Virus record (IMG/VR): IMGVR_UViG_2778261544_000008
Length of the DNA stretch: 11,300 nucleotides
DNA from: a virus
Taxonomy: Duplodnaviria; Heunggongvirae; Uroviricota; Caudoviricetes
Reading direction: 5' to 3' (one strand)
This document shows, piece by piece, positions 615 to 11,300 of this stretch. The notes beneath the pieces are model-generated. The model ran no database searches and was not told the DNA's origin. It worked only from the letters and a program-made list of their open reading frames with translations. Both the position numbers and the translations under genes were made by a program. Numbering within the stretch: the stretch's first letter is position 1; each line of letters begins with the position of its first letter.

Positions 615-636
615 AACGTTACCGGAAATTTCCTTG

Positions 637-1908
637 CTATTCTTTCCAGTCAATCCCATCCAGTAAGCACCCTGCCTCATATTGCCCCACCACCCAGTCA
701 AGGTTACAGGACTCATAGAACGCGAGGCGATTATACTGAGGCTCGTTTTTTACCAGGCCACGAACGGAACCACGCTGCCAGTACAGACACAGATTGGCAA
801 GAGGTGTGATCAATACAGCATTGTCCGGGAAAAATGGAACGGTCACAGCCGGGAGATTCCCCAGAACGGGATTTTTAATGATTTCCTCGTTAAGCAAAAT
901 TTCCTGATTCATCTGCGATGGATCAAGACGGTTTATCAAAGGCCATTGCTTACGGACCAGCGTATTGTGACTGCATACGGCCACAATGCCTTCCTGCCAC
1001 TGTTCATCAATCATGGATTGCCAGGCATCCAGAACGAGCGCATCTATCGTATGGTGTGTACCGCGTGTATTACTTTTCGGTGATGAAACAGAAAGGCCGC
1101 TGATAACCCTTCCCGCCGCTTCATTTCGAAACTTCTGCAACCAACCCACGCCGCAATCGTCACGCCCCGGATATGTTTCAGGGTCAGATTCGGCGGCATA
1201 ATGTGTGCCGTTAAAACCAATCTGAATTAAATCCAGCCATTTCCGGCGTTCAAAAGCGGCCCGCGCACTTCCTTCAAGGCCGTTTGCGGATGCGTGAGCA
1301 TCGGCATTGTCGTAGCTCAACGCAAAATCAAAATTAACCTGCTCGCAGCGGTAGCCCCTTGAAACCAGTGAATGCGCCTGTAGTGGCGAACGGCGCTCGT
1401 GAGGTGGCGATGTGCGTGCCAACGGCCCCGAAGCGTCTACCAGCACAACCCGACCTGATATATCCGTAACAGGCACGGGAGTTATTTCAGCAAGGAAATT
1501 TGCCTGCCATCCACTGGCAAGCGTTGCACTCTGGCGGGGAACGGGTTCAACTTCTGACGAATAGCGCGCAGTGTCACCGGAAAAGTGCAAATCCTTCGGA
1601 TGTTTTCCGGTTATCGACTCGATAGCGCAATTGAAAACCATCTGAGCCTGTTGATTTCGTTGTGATACAACAGAATCAGCAGTGCAATTATAACGCTCAA
1701 TGCCGTCGTTATTACCCCCACCGCTTGCAGTATGCAGGGTGTGAAGCTCAAGCTCACGCTCCAGTTTTTGATATTCATTGTCCAGCGCGCGACGCGTCTC
1801 ATCGCTTATGCTTGCTGTGTTTGCTTTCAGGCGATTCCGGGACATTAATCCCCTGAGTCGGCTCACTATATCAGCGCCGTGCAAATGTGGAGTATTCAGA
1901 CCGCCCAT
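637..1908 (-). CDS. Major capsid protein, P2 gpN-like; start codon uncertain
   Basis: Several blocks match my recollection of P2 gpN: CEQVNFDF, IGFNG, VGWLQKFRNEAAGRVIS, IDALVLDA, LGNLPAVTVPFFPDNAVLITPLANL, YESCNLDWVVGQYEAGCL. The homologous region begins near the ATG at 1641-1639. The frame is open up to 2085. An ATG at 1908-1906 overlaps the upstream ORF's stop as TAATG. Confidence 0.75.
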   Translation of the reverse strand: MGGLNTPHLHGADIVSRLRGLMSRNRLKANTASISDETRRALDNEYQKLERELELHTLHTASGGGNNDGIERYNCTADSVVSQRNQQAQMVFNCAIESITGKHPKDLHFSGDTARYSSEVEPVPRQSATLASGWQANFLAEITPVPVTDISGRVVLVDASGPLARTSPPHERRSPLQAHSLVSRGYRCEQVNFDFALSYDNADAHASANGLEGSARAAFERRKWLDLIQIGFNGTHYAAESDPETYPGRDDCGVGWLQKFRNEAAGRVISGLSVSSPKSNTRGTHHTIDALVLDAWQSMIDEQWQEGIVAVCSHNTLVRKQWPLINRLDPSQMNQEILLNEEIIKNPVLGNLPAVTVPFFPDNAVLITPLANLCLYWQRGSVRGLVKNEPQYNRLAFYESCNLDWVVGQYEAGCLLDGIDWKE

Positions 1909-2618
1909 TACTGCCACCCCCGGCAGAGTTCTCTGCCCTCCGCAAGGTCGCGCATTTTTTCTGGATTCTGTCGCGCCGCGCTCCATTGTACAGGTGAAGG
2001 GGCGTTCCTGATTGCGCGGCTTACCGAATCCGGGAGTTTCTCCGGGCAATAACGCAGCGGGCTGGAGGTGTCGCTTTCGGTATCGTTAATCCGGCCGCGA
2101 ATCATCCCGACACTTTCAGCAGTATCTGTCGCTTTCAGTGTTTCGCATATTTTCTTTTCTGCGTTATACAGCGGCTGGCCAAGCAGCTCACATAAACCAC
2201 GAATCAATAACAGAGCAGGGGTCAGCTCGTTAATCAGTTCGGGAAGTGCTTTTGCAAATATCTCTGCCCGCAACTTATTATCAATGCTTTCGTAAGCACA
2301 ACCAGCCTCTGCCGCGTTATAACGACACTCCAGTAGCCTGATGCGCGCCTCATCATGCAGCACCCGCAGACGCTCAAGATTTTCTCGCGCCACACCCGCC
2401 TGAATGGATAATTTCGCGGAGGCTTCCGTTTTTACGCCCAGCGCAGACAGGATTGAGTTCTGCCAGTCACGATCGAGAGATTCCAGCTCCCCTTTCGTCT
2501 GTTCGATAGTTGCTTCCAGATTGGTGATTAATGATTCCTGTTCACTGAGTTTTGCCATGGCTGCATCAAACTGTGCTTTACATACCTGATGTTCGGCGCT
2601 TGCCTGAGTTATATCCAT
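1908..2618 (-). CDS. Helical or coiled-coil protein, candidate capsid scaffold (Sid/gpO-like role)
   Basis: 236-aa ORF with a good SD (CAGGAGcaaatATG). The N-terminal two thirds are heptad-like and helical. It lies immediately upstream of, and overlaps, the capsid gene. Its last ~45 codons overlap the capsid-frame ORF and look low-complexity. Confidence 0.5.
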   Translation of the reverse strand: MDITQASAEHQVCKAQFDAAMAKLSEQESLITNLEATIEQTKGELESLDRDWQNSILSALGVKTEASAKLSIQAGVARENLERLRVLHDEARIRLLECRYNAAEAGCAYESIDNKLRAEIFAKALPELINELTPALLLIRGLCELLGQPLYNAEKKICETLKATDTAESVGMIRGRINDTESDTSSPLRYCPEKLPDSVSRAIRNAPSPVQWSAARQNPEKMRDLAEGRELCRGWQ

Positions 2619-2783
2619 TATTTGCTCCTGTAATACATTTTTTTACTTACGCCGATTTTTTCCATATTGCGTAATACATTCCAGCCGATTTTGTTCTCGT
2701 AATACGCTCACAATACTGTTGTATTACGCTTTCTTATATCGCGGGTGTTAAATCCCGGCATAAACAATCAGGGAGGCAACACG
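2619..2783. promoter_or_regulatory. Divergent promoter/operator region with clustered GTA(A/T)TAC palindromes
   Basis: 165-bp intergenic region between the minus-strand scaffold-like gene and the plus-strand RHH-like gene. It holds four copies of GTAATAC/GTATTAC (2630, 2671, 2699, 2721) and a 2-unit direct repeat gccgatttt...cgtaatac. One copy abuts the SD of the scaffold-like gene. Confidence 0.5.
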
Positions 2784-3017
2784 ATGAAAAAACAAAAGAA
2801 AATGCGATGCGTATTACGCTGTATTCGTATCCCGCACGAAATCGACCATAAAATAAATCAGATATGTCAGGACAGAGAGATGAACTACTCCCAGTGCGTC
2901 AGAATGTTTATCAGTCAGGGAATTAAGGCCGGGGAAACGCAGGAAGAAGACTGCAACGGGCGCAATGTAGCGGGGGATGTGTGGGCCTGGGCAAATGACC
3001 AGAACCACACGACGTAA
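2784..3017 (+). CDS. Small DNA-binding protein, ribbon-helix-helix-like (putative repressor)
   Basis: 77-aa ORF with a strong SD (GGGAGG, 7-nt spacing). The N-terminus has a beta-strand then two helices (MRCVLRCIRIP-HEIDHKINQICQDRE-MNYSQ-CVRMFISQGIK), typical of CopG/Arc-type RHH proteins. Divergent from the capsid operon. Confidence 0.45.
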   Translation: MKKQKKMRCVLRCIRIPHEIDHKINQICQDREMNYSQCVRMFISQGIKAGETQEEDCNGRNVAGDVWAWANDQNHTT

Positions 3018-3067
3018 TACAGAAATAACGCAGCCGGTCACACTCGCTGGCTGTGTTATACAAATCA

Positions 3068-3250
3068 CTATGAAGTTTTCGACTTCCTGCGCTTAGTAAT
3101 GCGTACAAACGACTCAAGCGTACAAAAACAAGCCCCACACTCAATATTATTGCACTGGTAATACGTTCTGTAGATGTTTTGTTCGTGTTCTTCCAACGAA
3201 CGACCACGGGTGCGGGCTGAAGCGCCACAGGCCGGGCAAGGGAAAGACAT
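3068..3250 (-). CDS. ogr: Ogr/Delta-family zinc-finger late-gene transcription activator
   Basis: 60-aa ORF MSFPCPACGASARTRGRS...YYQCNNIECGACFCTLESF. The C-x2-C-x22-C-x4-C spacing and flanking residues match P2 Ogr (MFHCPLC...HQCQNVNCSATFITYES). SD GAGGAG lies upstream. Confidence 0.85.
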   Translation of the reverse strand: MSFPCPACGASARTRGRSLEEHEQNIYRTYYQCNNIECGACFCTLESFVRITKRRKSKTS

Positions 3251-3613
3251 ATCACGCTCCTCTTACTGGTGTGAAATTTAACCTATTATATCTTCTGCCG
3301 CCCCCCTCTGGCTGTATCAAATAAACCCGCAGCAGTCGCCGCGTATTACGCACGGGCGCGCCGTTCCCATGCTCACTCGTCACATTCCCCGTATCAGTTC
3401 TCTCTTGCCGTAAGAACGGCTCTGGCTGGCGATAAAACTAACCCGGTCGGGGCATTCCCGCAGCCTTTAGCGAAAATGTAATTTACCCCCTGAAACGCGT
3501 GCTGTTCCCCCGTCACCTGCGCGCGAAAAACTCACCGTTTTTTGTGCACGCACGAAATCGCCCTCCGGGCGCGCCAGTACTTGGCCGGATGGGCAAAAAG
3601 TTACTCTAAAAAA

Positions 3614-3643
3614 TTGTGCAAATTTGTGCACTTTTGTGCAGAT
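3614..3643. repeat. Three direct TTGTGCA repeats at exact 10-bp phasing
   Basis: TTGTGCAAAT / TTGTGCACTT / TTGTGCAGAT starting at 3614, 3624 and 3634, in non-coding DNA upstream of the Ogr-like gene. Confidence 0.5.
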
Positions 3644-3862
3644 GAACAATAGCGTCAAAAAGAGTGCTTTTGAGAAATTTTTTATGGCAACTGCGCCGCG
3701 TGTATTACGTTTTTTACCATCCCCGCCGCGCATGTACATGCTTCATTTTTCTGCCAAACAACAGGGCAACTCCCCGTGACTGGCAGCCCCAAAAAATCAA
3801 TGATTGATATTGCATTTTTGTTAGAGGTTAGACCAGTTGTTTTGAGGCTCTGCCTCATAATC

Positions 3863-4185
3863 CGGTGGGGGGTGCGCAAAGCGGTTACAACGGTTACAAC
3901 AGTCAAAAACACCACTTAACAGCATGATTTTAATGGATATTGTTTGTAACCGCTTTGCGGTTACACTGCGGTTACAACGGTTACAGGTTTCAGAAAGTTA
4001 TTTATTATCAATCAGTTAAAAACTTAACTTGTAACCGCCTGTAACCTAACAAAACGGTTACATGTAACCGCGTTGTAACCGCTTTTGTAACTCATCGGAC
4101 CAGCTGCAATGTATTGATATATAATATAAAAATGAGTAATTTTAAATTTGTAACCGTTGTAACCGCTTTGCGCAACCCCCCCCGG
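3863..4185. repeat. Iteron array (TGTAACCG/CGGTTACA) with flanking inverted repeat; putative replication origin
   Basis: At least 13 full copies of the 8-mer in ~285 bp. The left half is mostly CGGTTACA, the right half mostly TGTAACCG, around an AT-rich centre. Outer arms 3874-3899 and 4148-4173 are exact reverse complements (26 bp). Embedded palindromes GTAACCGCtttGCGGTTAC and CGGTTACATGTAACCG. An AT-rich stretch lies at 4100-4150. Confidence 0.55.
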
Positions 4186-4380
4186 ACTTTAGCGCGACCC
4201 TTTAAAATGTTAATTAAACTAACTTATTCCGTCTCACTTTCATTAACTCTCTGTAATTGAAATGTGCCTCGCCACTGTTTGACCCTTTCTGATAATCAGG
4301 GGAGGGAGAGCAAAAAAAATTGATGGCGACACCGCTGCAATATGGCCACCATTGCATTGCTGTTACCGTTGGTTCTGGCC

Positions 4381-4438: not shown

Positions 4439-5440
4439 TTACTCTGCTGGTTCTTTTTGTTCAGTGAATGCTATGTTAGCTATCGGGTTAAACCTCATGG
4501 CATCTGCCAGATAGTCGGGAGAAAAATGCGCATAAGTCATCGTTTGCTGAATAGTGGCATGGCCCAGAATCCGTTGCAGGGTAACGATGTTTCCCCCGTT
4601 CATCATGAAATGCGTGGCGAACGTATGACGCATCACATGAGTCGCCTGCCCTTTTGGCAAATCAGGCTTCACCTCCTGGAGGATCTCGCGAAACCGGAGA
4701 TAATCGACCTCGTACAGCGGCCCAGTTCGGCAGGTTTTAATCAGCGAGAGCACGGCATCAGACACCGGAACCGAACGGGACTTCCCGTTCTTGGTGTTGA
4801 AGAACGTCACGCGATTACCGACGATATGCTCCCCGCGTAATTCCGTCGCCTCACCCCACCGCGCCCCCGTGGAGAGACACAGAATGGCGACACGACGCGC
4901 ATCACCTTCGAGTCGCTCAAGAAGCCGCTCAATCTCATCATCAGAAAGAAAGGCCATCTCTGTATTCTGAATTTTTAGCTTACGTATACTGCGCACGGGG
5001 TTCGGGTTGTGAAAGACCCCTGCTTCAATCAACACCGTGAACATGGTAGACAGAACGCATAAGTCACGATTAATACTGGACGGCATTAATCCGGCCTGTA
5101 ATTTCTCTGACCGATACTCAAGCATAAATTTTCGCGTCATCTGGTTGGCGCGCGGATCTCCCATTTCACGAATCACTTTCTCCAGCCGGATCCTGTAGGT
5201 ATCGCCGTAAGCCTGATTACACCCGTCAAGCATCCACCATGTATCAAGCAACTCTGATAATCGCCGCCGATCAGCAGGTTTAGCTAGCCATGGGTTATTA
5301 TGGAAATTCTGCAAAACATATTGTTCGAACTTCTCTGCACTTCCTTTCCTGGTAAAAATTTTACGTATCCGTTTGCCGTATGTCCCTTGCGGCCTGATAT
5401 CTAGCAACCATCTTCCATCATCCATCTTTCTGATCGACAT
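4439..5440 (-). CDS. int: Tyrosine recombinase, P2-type integrase
   Basis: Strong similarity along the whole length to my recollection of P2 Int (MSIRKMDDGRWLLDIRPQG..., ILCLSTGARWGEA, ATHVMRHTFATHF, LQRILGHATIQQTMTYAHF, giving the catalytic R, H-x-x-R and Y). Start taken at ATG 5440 (SD AAGGAG upstream), not the upstream in-frame ATG at 5476. Confidence 0.9.
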   Translation of the reverse strand: MSIRKMDDGRWLLDIRPQGTYGKRIRKIFTRKGSAEKFEQYVLQNFHNNPWLAKPADRRRLSELLDTWWMLDGCNQAYGDTYRIRLEKVIREMGDPRANQMTRKFMLEYRSEKLQAGLMPSSINRDLCVLSTMFTVLIEAGVFHNPNPVRSIRKLKIQNTEMAFLSDDEIERLLERLEGDARRVAILCLSTGARWGEATELRGEHIVGNRVTFFNTKNGKSRSVPVSDAVLSLIKTCRTGPLYEVDYLRFREILQEVKPDLPKGQATHVMRHTFATHFMMNGGNIVTLQRILGHATIQQTMTYAHFSPDYLADAMRFNPIANIAFTEQKEPAE

Positions 5441-5442
5441 AC

Positions 5443-8112
5443 TTAAGATCTCTCCTTGTAACTGAATATCCGGCATTTCAGCACTTCCGGCTCTCTGGCC
5501 TCGGCTACTCCTTTTCCGGCGTTTGCCTGTCTGGACACCTCACTACGAATGGTTTTGCGGCCTGTCAAAGGTCGGGAACGCCCGGCTCCGAGCAGCTCAA
5601 TCATTTCGCGATCTGTTCTGATCTCCACGCGGTGAATGGCGGCAGCCTGTGCCAGTTGCGGAATGCTGATAGCAATCCCTTCGCGGCATCCCTTGCCGTA
5701 GTGGTTTACGCCGTATTTTGTTATGCCGTCCAGGAAGTCGAACGCCTCCCAGAACTCCGTCACTTCCGGCAAGTCAGCCGCCGCCGCTTTAACCTGCGCT
5801 GTTGCCATTTGTTCCAGTTCCAGACATGTGGCATCAAGCCATTCATCCGGGATATCAATAACGCATTTCAGCGCCCTGACCAGCGCGATAAGTTGTGCGT
5901 GATTTTTGGCGATGCGGGGATGGCGAATATTTTCGCATCCGCAAAGGCGTTCCGTTTCAGCTGGCGACACTTCCAGGAACGTTTGCATAATCGCCCGTTC
6001 CTGACTTACCGCCCGGTGAATAAAACCCGATACCTTCTCGACGGGGTAGAGTTCCAGCCGTCTCGCCGCCAGTCGGGTATCTGGTGAATGGCGTTTTTTA
6101 TCGGTGTATATGCGTATCAGGCGCTCAATAATTGCCGGTGAGGCGTTTACCCGCGCATTCTGTGCAATCACGATAGCGCCCTTAAAATCCGGATCATAGG
6201 TGTTGTTATTGTTGGCCTTAACACCACGAACACCGATACCGCCGCCGTTATAGAGGCTTTTCAGGTTATCGAAATCAAACGCACCTCTTTTTTGCGCATT
6301 GTCTCCCCGGTCTGCTTCAATCAGAACAACAGGCAATCCGGCGACCTGTCCAAAGGTGCGCTTCCAGCCCGCTTCTGATCCTTTGGTTGGATCAACGCCT
6401 TCGTAGTTGTCACGACCGCACAGCCGCCAGCAAAAATCAATCAATGTTGATTTACCCGTTCCGGGTTCCCCAGTGACTTCAAGGAAAGGGAAGGATTCTT
6501 CTTTATCCCGGATTTGTTCACTGAACAGCGACCCCAGCCAGAAAGCCAGGGTAATAATTCCCTTTTCGCCAAAAGCCAGCCAGAGATCTTCTACCCATGA
6601 CGTTGTAAATTCATCCGTTTTTTTGTAGTTAATCTGTAATGTGGGTTTTTCGCTTAATGGTTTTGCGTTTATGCCATCAATTTCAAAATAATCTTCGTCA
6701 TTGATTTCATAAGTTTTACCCTTGTAAACAGCAATATCATTAAACAGCCATGCCCCAATGGCCTTGTTGTATCCGATAAAATCCTGACCAATAACCTCTT
6801 TTATTGCAGGAAGGTCATTTTTTATTAATGCGTCAAGCTGCGTAGTCGTTCCGGTATAAATGCCGCCTTTTGCTACGTGCAACAGACGTTTTTTAAATTC
6901 AGATGCGGATGTTAATTGCCCTGATGTAAAGGTGTTTTTCACCGTAGCACCATCCGGGAATGTAATGCGGAAGTAATACCATGCTTCATCCGTATCATTG
7001 TTTCGAATGTAATAAAGCGGCACTGGGTTACAGTTTGCGATTTCTTTTACAGCGCCGGATTCCTTGAGTGCAATTTTGCGCGCTTCATCTTCGTCAACAT
7101 TTCGCTCATTAATGACACGCTCAACAGCCTTCATATGGCGCTCAATATCCAGCTTGAACCAGAAAACACGGTTATCAAAGGGAAAATGAAATTCCTTTCG
7201 CTCACGAAAGGAAAACATTATTAGTGCCTTATCTCGTGGAGATTTCGCCAGCAATAAATCACCGTAATAACGGTATCTTTTCACATCATGGCCACGCAGC
7301 TTTCCGGCGACGTGTAAATCATTCCAGTCGCGTTTATTGTTGTTTTTCCCTGGTAACGCCGCTGCCGTTCTCCAGCCGTCTTCGGCGCTGCGTTCTGCAT
7401 GTTTTTTCGCGTAACGCTCACCTGCACGCCCGTTATCCAGCGCCCACACGATAACCGGACGGGGATTATCCCCGCACAGCTTCGCCAGCTCTTCCAGCGC
7501 CTTATCAGGGTAGTTCACGGCAGACATGACAGAAACGGCCGCAATGCCATTCTGGTTAAGACTGATGGCATCAAAGATACCCTCACAAATCCAGATTTCT
7601 TTGGCCTTGCTTAAATCTGCTCCTGGATAAGCCCACCACAGCCCCTTGTAGCTGCCGGAAAAATTCGCCTTGCGTCCGAAGCGTTCCGGGCGATCTATGA
7701 TTCGCTCCCACCACACACCGTCAGCCAGCGTAAAACGCACAGTAGCGGCCTGTTCGCCGCTTTCCTTGTCCTGGTATCGCTCCTGGGTAAATGCTCCCCT
7801 CAGTGGCTCCACAGCAATATTGCGTGCTTCCTGAAGATAAGCTGCCGCCGCTGCGTATGGTTCATCTTTCGTACTGATATAGCGATCTGACCATGATGAA
7901 AACACATCCGGGTAAAGTTCTTTAGTCAGCAGGTCTACACCGCATTTATTTTCACGCCCGCAGTGTACGATGTACGGCCTTTCAAGGCTGGTAAACAACT
8001 CTTTCTTTCCACATTGCGGACAAACACCATACCGGAGGTAGTTATTTTCTTCTTTAAAGTTGTAATCACGAATAAGACGGTTAATAATCTCTTTTCTGGT
8101 GTTATGTTTCAT
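5443..8112 (-). CDS. Primase-helicase, P4 alpha-like (zinc ribbon + TOPRIM primase + P-loop helicase)
   Basis: N-terminal zinc-binding CPQCGKK...HCGRENKC, a TOPRIM-like segment EIWICEGIFDAISL...WALDNGRAG, and Walker A VTGEPGTGKST with a downstream VVLIEAD. ATG at 8112 is preferred; an in-frame GTG at 8130 is possible. The stop is 2 nt before the int start. Confidence 0.9.
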   Translation of the reverse strand: MKHNTRKEIINRLIRDYNFKEENNYLRYGVCPQCGKKELFTSLERPYIVHCGRENKCGVDLLTKELYPDVFSSWSDRYISTKDEPYAAAAAYLQEARNIAVEPLRGAFTQERYQDKESGEQAATVRFTLADGVWWERIIDRPERFGRKANFSGSYKGLWWAYPGADLSKAKEIWICEGIFDAISLNQNGIAAVSVMSAVNYPDKALEELAKLCGDNPRPVIVWALDNGRAGERYAKKHAERSAEDGWRTAAALPGKNNNKRDWNDLHVAGKLRGHDVKRYRYYGDLLLAKSPRDKALIMFSFRERKEFHFPFDNRVFWFKLDIERHMKAVERVINERNVDEDEARKIALKESGAVKEIANCNPVPLYYIRNNDTDEAWYYFRITFPDGATVKNTFTSGQLTSASEFKKRLLHVAKGGIYTGTTTQLDALIKNDLPAIKEVIGQDFIGYNKAIGAWLFNDIAVYKGKTYEINDEDYFEIDGINAKPLSEKPTLQINYKKTDEFTTSWVEDLWLAFGEKGIITLAFWLGSLFSEQIRDKEESFPFLEVTGEPGTGKSTLIDFCWRLCGRDNYEGVDPTKGSEAGWKRTFGQVAGLPVVLIEADRGDNAQKRGAFDFDNLKSLYNGGGIGVRGVKANNNNTYDPDFKGAIVIAQNARVNASPAIIERLIRIYTDKKRHSPDTRLAARRLELYPVEKVSGFIHRAVSQERAIMQTFLEVSPAETERLCGCENIRHPRIAKNHAQLIALVRALKCVIDIPDEWLDATCLELEQMATAQVKAAAADLPEVTEFWEAFDFLDGITKYGVNHYGKGCREGIAISIPQLAQAAAIHRVEIRTDREMIELLGAGRSRPLTGRKTIRSEVSRQANAGKGVAEAREPEVLKCRIFSYKERS

Positions 8113-8124
8113 ATATAAATCCCC

Positions 8125-8149
8125 CCCCACTGCACCTTTTGCAGTGGGG
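8125..8149. promoter_or_regulatory. Perfect 9-bp stem-loop just upstream of the primase start; attenuator or terminator-like
   Basis: CCCCACTGC-acctttt-GCAGTGGGG. On the plus strand it is followed by TTTTTATTAATT; on the minus strand it precedes the primase SD. It lies in the 43-nt gap between the 101-aa ORF and the primase gene. Confidence 0.4.
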
Positions 8150-9283: not shown

Positions 9284-9535
9284 TTTGGCGGCTCCTCTAA
9301 CTGATTTACGGAGTCTCGCCAGCACGCTGCTAAACATGGTGGCGGGACGTAACAGGGTTAGCAGACTGGCGTTAGAGAAACCAGCGAGCGCAAAGGCTCC
9401 CCCATTACGCCCCGCCATAATACGGGGTAGGGTGGAATTACGGGCACAAAAAAACCGCATTACGGAAATATAGCGGCTACCCGCTCTAACAATCAGGCTG
9501 CTAAACCCGGCACCTGTTTTATGAGGTGCGGGCAA

Positions 9536-9565: not shown

Positions 9566-9699
9566 GAAAAATTGCAAATTATTTTGGCGATATTGCGCTG
9601 ACTTATTGATTTTTAAGAGTAAAAAAGTCATTATCATTTCTGCCTATTGTTTCTTATTGTTGGTTTCAGGTGCATTAAATGCACATCCTTGACTGGTTG

Positions 9700-9831: not shown

Positions 9832-10152
9832 TTATTCAACTCTGGCGCTACCGGATTCCCTCTCCCTTTTCTTTTTGGCGTTTTCGTATGGGTTATTCAC
9901 TTTGGCAATAACTGGCGGATTACGCAGCCACCACAAAACATCACTTAACAGCCAGGTACATGAGCAACGCCCCAAAGAGTGACGGGGAGGAAAAGCACCG
10001 ATCTTCTCCAGTTCCCAGCGCCGGGAGCGTGAAAGCGTGGTCATCTTTTTACACTTCTCTTCCCTGATGCGTTCTTCGCAGTCAAAACCATACTCGGCGA
10101 GTATGGTGCGGCGCTGTTCTGGAGTTGGTGGAATGAATGCGGATTGAGTCAT
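9832..10152 (-). CDS. alpA: AlpA/Vis-family DNA-binding regulator (excisionase-like HTH)
   Basis: 106-aa ORF with SD GGGGGA. The central segment LSRSRRWELEKIGAFPPRHSLGRCSCTWLLSDVLWWL fits the AlpA/Vis pattern (LSRST-YR...G-FP-...LG-R-V-W...V--W). Confidence 0.6.
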   Translation of the reverse strand: MTQSAFIPPTPEQRRTILAEYGFDCEERIREEKCKKMTTLSRSRRWELEKIGAFPPRHSLGRCSCTWLLSDVLWWLRNPPVIAKVNNPYENAKKKRERESGSARVE

Positions 10153-10247: not shown

Positions 10248-11300
10248 TTACTGAGATGATGCCTTAATCCATCTTGATATAGTACTTTTATCAAAGCGCA
10301 TATTGAGTCCTGCCTCTCTTGCTTCCGCGGTCAATATATCAGCAAGTTTTACCGGATTGTTTTCGAGTTCTTTATAATGAATAACAAGCATCGCACGAAA
10401 AAAATCCTTCATTGTTTTAGATAATCGTTCTATATTGTTTTTATTGGTGCATATATCTTTCTCCCCATCCTCAGAACTTAATATATTGTTACCCGCACGC
10501 AAATATAAAGTATCTGCCAATGGACTAACATAATCTTTTCTTAACTCGCTATTGGAGTTTGTAGCATTTTGTATTTTTAAAAAATCATTCTTTAAGATAT
10601 ATAAATCACCAATATCAAAAGAAACATCCTCAGTAACAATTACTCCTATATGTATATCAACGTCAGAAGCAATTATAATATTGCTATTAATTATTCGGTT
10701 GGCTTTAAACTTCTTATTAAAATCATAGTTGGCAAAAAAACTTCCCCCCAAAGCGAAAATGCCGCCTATTTCAACAAAATACTTATGGTATTTTTCTTGA
10801 ATACCTTTAAATACTGGTGGTACAACTGCCACACCTCTTTCATCCGTTGCTATTCGATATACACTATATATGTGATAATTTTCCCCATAATATAACCCCC
10901 TGTTATAATAATTTAACAAAGCAAATGCAGTATCAATTGCTATGTCACCAAATTTGGGCGCTACATATGAATGGCTTAGAGATTCACACATTGAATCAAA
11001 TATAATTCTCGACTTGTTTTTTATATAATTAAAACCATGGTGTTCTGCCGCCCTTTCTGAAATGGCATCAAGGTCAGATAACCGTGATTTACATGGTTCT
11101 GAATCCATAAACTTACGCAGACAATCGAAATTAACCACATCTTTTTCATCTGGGATATTTAATACTCCATATGCAGATTCAATTTTTATACAAATACGAA
11201 TGCAGCCTGTCACAGCCCAATGAATAAGATCATCAATATCGCAGTCTAATAACTTTGCCGCGCGCTCAATAGGATAGTAATCTCTTAGTGGTAACGTCAT
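10248..11300 (-). CDS. Hypothetical protein, 350 aa, strongly AT-rich cargo gene with HTH-like termini
   Basis: Uninterrupted 1053-nt ORF whose ATG is the last three bases of the window. Composition is far more AT-rich than the neighbouring alpA and primase genes. The N-terminus (IERAAKLLDCDIDDLIHWAVTG) and C-terminus (LADILTAEAREAGLNMRFDKSTISRWIK) look HTH-like. The central domain is unrecognised. Confidence 0.65.
   Translation of the reverse strand: MTLPLRDYYPIERAAKLLDCDIDDLIHWAVTGCIRICIKIESAYGVLNIPDEKDVVNFDCLRKFMDSEPCKSRLSDLDAISERAAEHHGFNYIKNKSRIIFDSMCESLSHSYVAPKFGDIAIDTAFALLNYYNRGLYYGENYHIYSVYRIATDERGVAVVPPVFKGIQEKYHKYFVEIGGIFALGGSFFANYDFNKKFKANRIINSNIIIASDVDIHIGVIVTEDVSFDIGDLYILKNDFLKIQNATNSNSELRKDYVSPLADTLYLRAGNNILSSEDGEKDICTNKNNIERLSKTMKDFFRAMLVIHYKELENNPVKLADILTAEAREAGLNMRFDKSTISRWIKASSQ

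Follow-up and report, generated by a model that had tools for sequence, protein, structure and literature searches.

The window analyzed here, 11,300 nucleotides of viral DNA (IMG/VR record IMGVR_UViG_2778261544_000008), is, judged from its sequence, a P4-like satellite island in Escherichia coli located between hpt and gcd. A short palindromic word, GTAWTAC (where W is A or T), is clustered in it around two divergent genes, one encoding a 236-amino-acid (aa) protein at the head of the operon that includes the element's own capsid gene, and the other encoding a 77-aa protein. The cluster is real and very likely functional. With moderate confidence we favor the reading that its members are operators for a DNA-binding protein of the same swappable cassette, the likeliest binder being the divergent 77-aa protein, which would act negatively on promoters driven by an activator of the Ogr/Delta family.

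A palindrome cluster around two divergent genes

The window contains 11 copies of GTAWTAC compared with 0.93 expected from 200 dinucleotide shuffles, the largest shuffle having four, and in the 1.7-kb region around the divergent genes there are nine copies against 0.17 expected, a number that none of 2000 shuffles reached. The same word emerged from an unbiased k-mer count, in which GTAATAC ranked first with nine copies in 1.26 kb versus two in the other 10 kb. The nine clustered copies, at 2630, 2671, 2699, 2721, 2811, 3014, 3158, 3343 and 3702, are all where a first-pass annotation of this DNA had reported them, with four inside the 165-bp intergenic region (2619-2783) as it had described. 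Its claim that the word occurs nowhere else in the 11.3 kb was wrong, there being further copies at 1067 and 6973, and its description of the sites as usually CGTAWTACG was loosely right: three sites are exact and five have one mismatch, but the site at 2630 has two. The sites and the genes and signals around them are as follows, with distances measured from the center of an activator box in the intergenic region and promoter positions as predicted below.

640-1908, minus strand: major capsid gene of the P2 family, its 423-aa product having 34% identity to P2 gpN
1067..1073: extra GTATTAC inside the capsid gene, within the cassette
1908-2618, minus strand: 236-aa gene, first of the leftward operon, possibly a distant Sid relative
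2630..2636: site A, GTAATAC, 70.5 bp left of the box center, predicted at about +16 of the leftward promoter
2671..2677: site B, GTAATAC, 29.5 bp left of the box center, predicted to fall near -26 of the leftward promoter, that of the 236-aa and capsid genes
2695..2712: activator box of the Ogr/Delta type between the divergent genes, TCT-N12-ACA, with one mismatch to TGT-N12-ACA
2699..2705: site C, GTAATAC, inside the activator box, its center at -1.5 from that of the box
2721..2727: site D, GTATTAC, 20.5 bp right of the box center, predicted at about -34 of the rightward (77-aa gene) promoter
2784-3017, plus strand: 77-aa gene, the candidate regulator, divergent from the 236-aa gene
2811..2817: site E, GTATTAC, in the 77-aa gene, about +110 from the box center
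3014..3020: site F, GTAATAC, overlapping the stop codon (TAA) of the 77-aa gene
3068-3250, minus strand: gene for an Ogr/Delta-family zinc-finger activator (60 aa; PF04606, E-value 3.3e-11), convergent with the 77-aa gene
3158..3164: site G, GTAATAC, within the ogr coding sequence, read as T-Y-Y on the minus strand
3328..3343, minus strand: terminator-like hairpin directly after site H and ahead of the ogr -10 element TATAAT (3290-3285)
3343..3349: site H, 93 bp ahead of the start codon of ogr and part of a perfect palindrome, GCGTATTACGC
3475..3641: cos block of the helper type containing three TTGTGCA repeats, with site H on one side and site I on the other
3702..3708: site I, GTATTAC, 68 bp past the final TTGTGCA of cos
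6973..6979: extra GTAATAC within the primase coding sequence, read as W-Y-Y, outside the array

Two further details of the first-pass annotation were borne out, namely that the site at 2630 abuts CTCCT, the complement of the Shine-Dalgarno sequence of the 236-aa gene, and that the site at 3014 contains the stop codon (3015-3017) of the 77-aa gene.

Five lineages with conserved positions and changing words

Word-indexed protein searches returned only near-identical E. coli relatives for the 77-aa and 236-aa proteins. These close relatives comprise 57 genomes at least 95% identical in the region; in one of them, NCTC9082, 63/63 site bases are identical versus 1056/1079 bases (97.9%) outside the sites. 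Because the surroundings are also nearly identical, they are uninformative on selection. A locus first taken as a 52%-identical relative (L003) is actually a noisy assembly of a close relative. An exhaustive search with the 77-aa protein yielded four distant homologues at 33-38% identity; P0020, a 434-aa repeat protein also among its matches, is irrelevant. The distant loci are L004, L005/L006, the Salmonella loci L011/L016, and L014, which with the window make five lineages. All four have the same order of capsid gene, ~240-aa gene, divergent small gene (70-82 aa over the five lineages), ogr, primase and integrase, and an ogr homologue is at the same relative position in 5/5 lineages. No complete E. 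coli genome contains the cassettes of L014, L005 or L004, and a search for related loci with alignment A5 found nothing in genome, viral or metagenome contigs.

The window cassette has no nucleotide similarity to any of the four distant loci. L014 is 94% identical to the window in the MazEF flank and 90.5% in the cos/ori flank, while the cassette between them (~617-3496) is without nucleotide similarity, which indicates, at the level of sequence, a cassette swap between otherwise similar elements. The enrichment recurs in the Salmonella locus L011, where GTAATAC was again the top k-mer (seven copies in 1.26 kb versus three in 19 kb; in the region, eight versus 0.12 expected), and the metagenome lineage L005 has the same word as L011 (four versus 0.15 expected). 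In L004 the word is (A)CTGTATAACAG(T), present three times. The L014 cassette has no GTAWTAC and instead contains GTCWGAC at four versus 0.45 expected copies, a word absent from the window. Since the word changes with the cassette between near-identical flanks, the binder is more likely to be a product of the cassette than of the host or a helper. In the 77-aa protein family the N-terminal strand varies in step with the palindrome, with TGTAWTACA common to L011 and L005, as set out here by lineage.

Window: strand RCVLRCIRIP, word CGTAWTACG
L011: strand KSVLRTMRIP, word TGTAWTACA
L005: strand RSVLRTIRIP, word TGTAWTACA
L004: strand KSVLRAMRVP, word TGTATAACA
L014: strand KSIRRTIRIP, word TGTCWGACA

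This concordance of strand and word is suggestive, not statistical.

The intergenic regions aligned (A3) around a conserved TTGTTGT...ACAAC element, which in the window includes the activator box. L011, L005 and L004 have a perfect TGT-N12-ACA at the homologous position, and L014 has a version with one mismatch. The first-pass annotation missed the box because an exact search for TGT-N12-ACA finds none in this region of the window, and its suggestion that the capsid operon might lie outside classic Ogr/Delta control is not supported in view of the box, its perfect form in three relatives and a layout like that of the P2 P/O operon pair and of P4 sid. An activator of the family is available, PF04606 being matched at 3068-3250 and a homologue being present in all lineages. 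The region looks like two divergent late promoters of the P2 type with one Ogr/Delta box in common. When the rule that places transcription starts 55 bp from the box center was applied, starts were predicted near 2648 and 2759, and a -10-like hexamer, CAATAT, adjoins site B.

Sites B and D are fixed within 1 bp relative to the box center across lineages, with A at approximately -70 and E at approximately +110. The counterparts of site B are at -28.5 in L011, -28.5 with one mismatch in L005 and -29.5 in L014 (GTCTGAC), compared with -29.5 in the window, and those of site D are at +21.5 in L011, L005 and L004 (GTATAAC in L004), compared with +20.5. Site A has counterparts at -72.5 in L011 (GTAAGAC, one mismatch) and at -67.5 in L004 (GTATAAC). 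Site C is confined to the window lineage, with no counterpart in the other four. The check that the first-pass annotation had proposed, motif discovery across homologous elements, found positions conserved at equivalent places and a word that changes with the cassette.

Site E reads in frame as GTA TTA C, encoding V-L-R within the putative DNA-reading strand. Val is encoded by GTA in 4/4 of the lineages with V-L-R and Leu by TTA in 3/4, while the flanking Ser and Arg codons differ; from the element-wide codon frequencies (GTA 0.26, TTA 0.17) the chance of GTA-TTA in at least three of four lineages is ~3.5e-4. Because GTA-TTA is kept across lineages while neighboring synonymous positions vary, this codon choice suggests a constraint at the DNA level. 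L004 has no room for its own variant at this position because GTA TAA would be a stop, and in L014 the corresponding codons (2986-2992, ATC AGG C for I-R-R) differ at two positions from its word GTCAGAC. L011 has a site close to the 3' end of its homologous gene (relative position +358), as the window has with site F. Site F is lost in L003; at site G, L003 keeps a GTATTAC although the flanks diverge. Site G may be a coding by-product, and the 6973 copy is one, because the same W-Y-Y codons are at the same place in L004. The TATAAT ahead of ogr is a perfect hexamer without a recognizable -35 element, and the order of site, hairpin, T run, TATGAT and then ogr is the same in L011 (10497-10617).

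The cos block (3475-3641) is ~80% identical to the sequence that immediately follows the portal gene in ~1100 P2-like prophages of E. coli, and on that likeness it is likely to be a cos/terminase recognition site of the helper type. P2 itself was rejected as that type, its cos sequence having no match to the window; the type is that of a different P2-like lineage. Sites adjacent to cos recur across lineages, on both sides in the window (3343 and 3702) and in L011 (relative positions +897 and +1136). Past cos, L004 has its own variant, CACTGTATAACAGTG, at 66 bp and L011 has CTGTATTACAT at 54 bp, compared with 68 bp for site I. Two observations concern neighboring sequences. In L014, ~126-bp tandem repeats are present between ogr and cos (3850-4100), each unit with one TGTCAGACA copy of that locus's word. 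In L002, a P2-like prophage of E. coli SE11, an 8-bp palindrome, GTAATTAC (897-904), lies just before the Shine-Dalgarno sequence of the helper terminase gene; it resembles site A beside the Shine-Dalgarno sequence of the 236-aa gene, which may be a coincidence or a shared leader element.

A proposed cassette-encoded regulator and its alternatives

The structure model of the 77-aa protein has an unstructured N-terminus, helices at 18-31 and 35-51 and a C-terminal helix at 62-75, with a mean predicted local distance difference test score (pLDDT) of 68. The top list of a Foldseek search with it was almost entirely ribbon-helix-helix (RHH) proteins (Arc, NikA, VapB, AmrZ, MatP, CdbA, CopG and TacA), all with E-values above 0.6. 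No curated RHH family was matched at threshold; the weak profile matches were to Pfam CopG_antitoxin (E-value 0.04; 15 bits versus a cutoff of 28) and RHH_9 (E-value 0.15) and to NCBIfam RelB/DinJ (E-value 0.007; 16.6 bits versus 45.65). These hints are consistent and all sub-threshold, and we describe the protein as RHH-like, not as a proven family member. The first-pass proposal of an operator array for an element-encoded dimeric regulator is supported as far as the site positions, the cassette-linked word and the matching strand are concerned, while its RHH identification of the divergent protein has sub-threshold hints only.

In the mechanism that we propose, the 77-aa protein would bind as a dimer, one palindrome per dimer. 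Sites B and D would lie in the cores of the leftward (236-aa/capsid) and rightward (77-aa) promoters and sites A and E just downstream of the predicted transcription starts, with site C, in the window lineage only, inside the activator box. By competing with the activator and RNA polymerase at these positions the protein would limit or time the Ogr-driven expression of the satellite head genes and of itself. The accessory sites by the terminator upstream of ogr and by cos would serve perhaps in cooperative binding or in packaging. What the sequences themselves show is the enrichment of the motif, its conserved positions, its linkage to the cassette and the gene order; which protein binds, where transcription starts and whether the regulation is negative are inferred.

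Several observations weigh against this mechanism. The cassette also encodes the Ogr-type zinc-finger protein, which is inseparable from the 77-aa protein by co-occurrence, and with five lineages only, the match of strand and word is anecdotal. The predicted starts come from the -55 rule only and would be displaced by a second -10-like hexamer beside site B. Conserved codons underlie sites G and E, and site H, at approximately -68 from the predicted ogr start, has an atypical location for a repressor site. Lastly, the flank of site I is shared with L014, which keeps the window-type word there although its cassette uses another.

The presence of ogr in the same cassette, where it also diverges between lineages, raises the alternative that the satellite's own Ogr/Delta-type protein binds the palindromes as short-spaced TGT-N3-ACA versions of its box, so that they would be extra activator sites like the second box upstream of P4 sid. 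The extended word TGTAnnACA of L011, L005 and L004 does have the outer triplets of the activator box, and P4 has two boxes upstream of sid (9493 and 9531). We consider this unlikely, given that most window sites are CGT...ACG and not TGT...ACA, that lineages differ in the short palindrome but not in the TGT-N12-ACA box, that the change of the 77-aa strand tracks the change of word, and that the activator family must keep recognizing the late promoters of the helper. Doubtful too is a reading in which the 77-aa protein is the binder but has as its main job the marking or bending of DNA around cos for packaging, or a centromere-type role in plasmid maintenance like that of omega or ParG, the promoter sites being only autoregulatory. 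It would account for the sites on both sides of cos in the window and L011, for the L004 variant past cos at an offset like that in the window, and for the tandemly repeated copies between ogr and cos in L014; but the best-conserved positions are those around the activator box, L014 keeps by cos a window-type word that mismatches its cassette, and protein family scans of the window showed no partition ATPase gene.

A host or helper-phage protein could also be imagined as the binder, the array then being a sensor of host state or helper infection. Host repressors of the GntR/FadR type use GT-N3-AC cores, a general form that the palindrome shares, and satellites do read helper signals, as when P2 Cox activates a P4 promoter. 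This is distinctly improbable because cassettes set between 90-94% identical flanks, the helper-type cos block among them, have different words, and a host GntR-type repressor is disfavored on the same ground. Moreover, P2 has three GTAWTAC in 33.6 kb with none at its late promoters or in the P/O operon promoter region, and in the SE11 prophage that matches at cos, a sampled 8-kb segment spanning the scaffold/terminase intergenic region has one, in the portal gene. That the cluster has no function at all, being a by-product of composition, codon content and shared ancestry, is the least credible of the alternatives and to us very improbable. It is true that three of the 11 sites fall on conserved codons (2811, V-L-R; 3158, T-Y-Y; 6973, W-Y-Y) and that similarity among the close E. 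coli relatives is too high for selection to be seen, but no shuffle reached the observed count, the same enrichment is found independently in a Salmonella lineage without nucleotide similarity, and distances from the activator box vary by no more than 1 bp between lineages.

A bolder extension of the favored reading, in which the 77-aa protein is an operator-binding regulator of the cassette, would make it a cassette-specific self-recognition factor. It would both gate the Ogr-driven production of the satellite's own capsid and Sid-like protein and tag the satellite DNA on both sides of cos, so that satellite and not helper genomes enter the heads that the satellite builds; each cassette swap would replace the word along with the reading strand, and the in-gene copy would be written by the strand's own codons. 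We regard this extension as speculative and unlikely.

The satellite element and comparison with known systems

The gene order of the island was derived from protein family scans together with the annotated E. coli relative NCTC9082. In addition to the features given above, the window has the following.

1-593: MazE/MazF, at the hpt-proximal end of the island
Following ogr: a non-coding stretch of ~1.2 kb
4439-5476, minus strand: second tyrosine recombinase (345 aa), XerC-like, directly after the primase
5443-8130, minus strand: toprim primase
Between the primase and the AlpA-like gene: small open reading frames (ORFs), including an Icd-like ORF with C4 antisense RNA and isrK
9832-10152, minus strand: AlpA-like gene
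10248-11300, minus strand: 350-aa ORF

The main integrase is just past the window end (beyond 11300) in NCTC9082, making two tyrosine recombinases in all. The element therefore has the hallmarks of P4-like satellites, namely an integrase, an alpha-type primase, an AlpA-type regulator and a Delta/Ogr protein, together with a helper-type cos (3475-3641). The capsid protein has an N-terminal extension of 85 aa. The 236-aa protein had been labeled a scaffold protein in the first-pass annotation, but it showed no resemblance to the P2 scaffold gpO on comparison, and we rejected that label. In an hhalign comparison its family had a weak likeness to P4 Sid (probability 34%, E-value 4e-4, 135 columns), by which the protein may be Sid-like. 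Nothing was found in a comparison of the family with P4 Psu, and no Psu-like gene was seen in the window, the other ORFs of which were not compared with Psu. C4 antisense RNA (72.9 bits) and isrK (52.2 bits) were identified at 9335-9529 beside the Icd-like ORF, as in the RNA immunity region of the P4/P1 type. Between 3861 and 4186 there are dense CGGTTACAA / TTGTAACCG iterons in both orientations inside a 39-nucleotide inverted repeat (3861-3899 and 4148-4186; 95% complementary), a block that is likely the replication origin for the adjoining toprim primase.

As a P4-like satellite the island is ordinary in being a chromosomal island with an integrase, toprim primase, AlpA-like and Ogr/Delta genes, an Icd-like ORF accompanied by C4 antisense RNA, and a cos of the helper type. 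It is unlike those satellites in having its own P2-family capsid gene, a doubtful Sid relative, no Psu seen and the extra 77-aa gene, and in that its delta/ogr is a separate convergent gene and not part of a sid operon. Capsid-encoding P4-like elements have no mention in the satellite surveys consulted, and the setting is a rare, undescribed one.

P2 and P4 are the textbook phage and parasite, with late genes described as purely activator-controlled, through Ogr/Delta. The putative promoters of the window resemble theirs closely. The P2 P/O operon pair has a single activator site (3057-3087) for its two divergent starts, 3016 and 3127, and its genes are 173 bp apart compared with 165 bp here; the distance from box to ATG is like that at P4 sid, with boxes at 9493 and 9531 and the sid ATG at 9583; and an Ogr/Delta gene is present in the element, as with the P2/P4 late promoters. 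Unlike those promoters, the window box has one mismatch and a GTAATAC inside it, and palindromes bracket it at -29 and +21. We know of no element-encoded protein with operators over late promoters that has been described for P2 or P4, nor is one mentioned in the literature consulted. If confirmed, the present reading would add a negative or timing layer to Ogr-type promoters, provide a new small regulator family in which the match of protein and operator is readable across natural variants, and offer a handle on the coordination between a helper and a satellite producing head protein of its own.

The closest parallels for the predicted regulator are the RHH repressors (Arc and Mnt of P22, CopG, MetJ and omega). 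Like these repressors, which have short palindromic or repeated operators, the 77-aa protein is small and is predicted to have an N-terminal strand (motif xVLRxIRIP) ahead of two helices, and its putative operators are palindromic words of 7-9 bp, which a single dimer could cover, in several copies over predicted core promoters, its own among them, at divergent genes. The 77-aa protein differs from them in its extra C-terminal helix, which has an invariant Trp, and in matching no curated family at threshold. The predicted binding sites of the window extend across 1.1 kb, some of them in coding sequence and some on either side of cos, and do not form a tight tandem array. The kind of system is thus an ordinary one, a small repressor-type protein with its operators, and it is the setting, in a satellite that carries its own capsid gene, that is rare.

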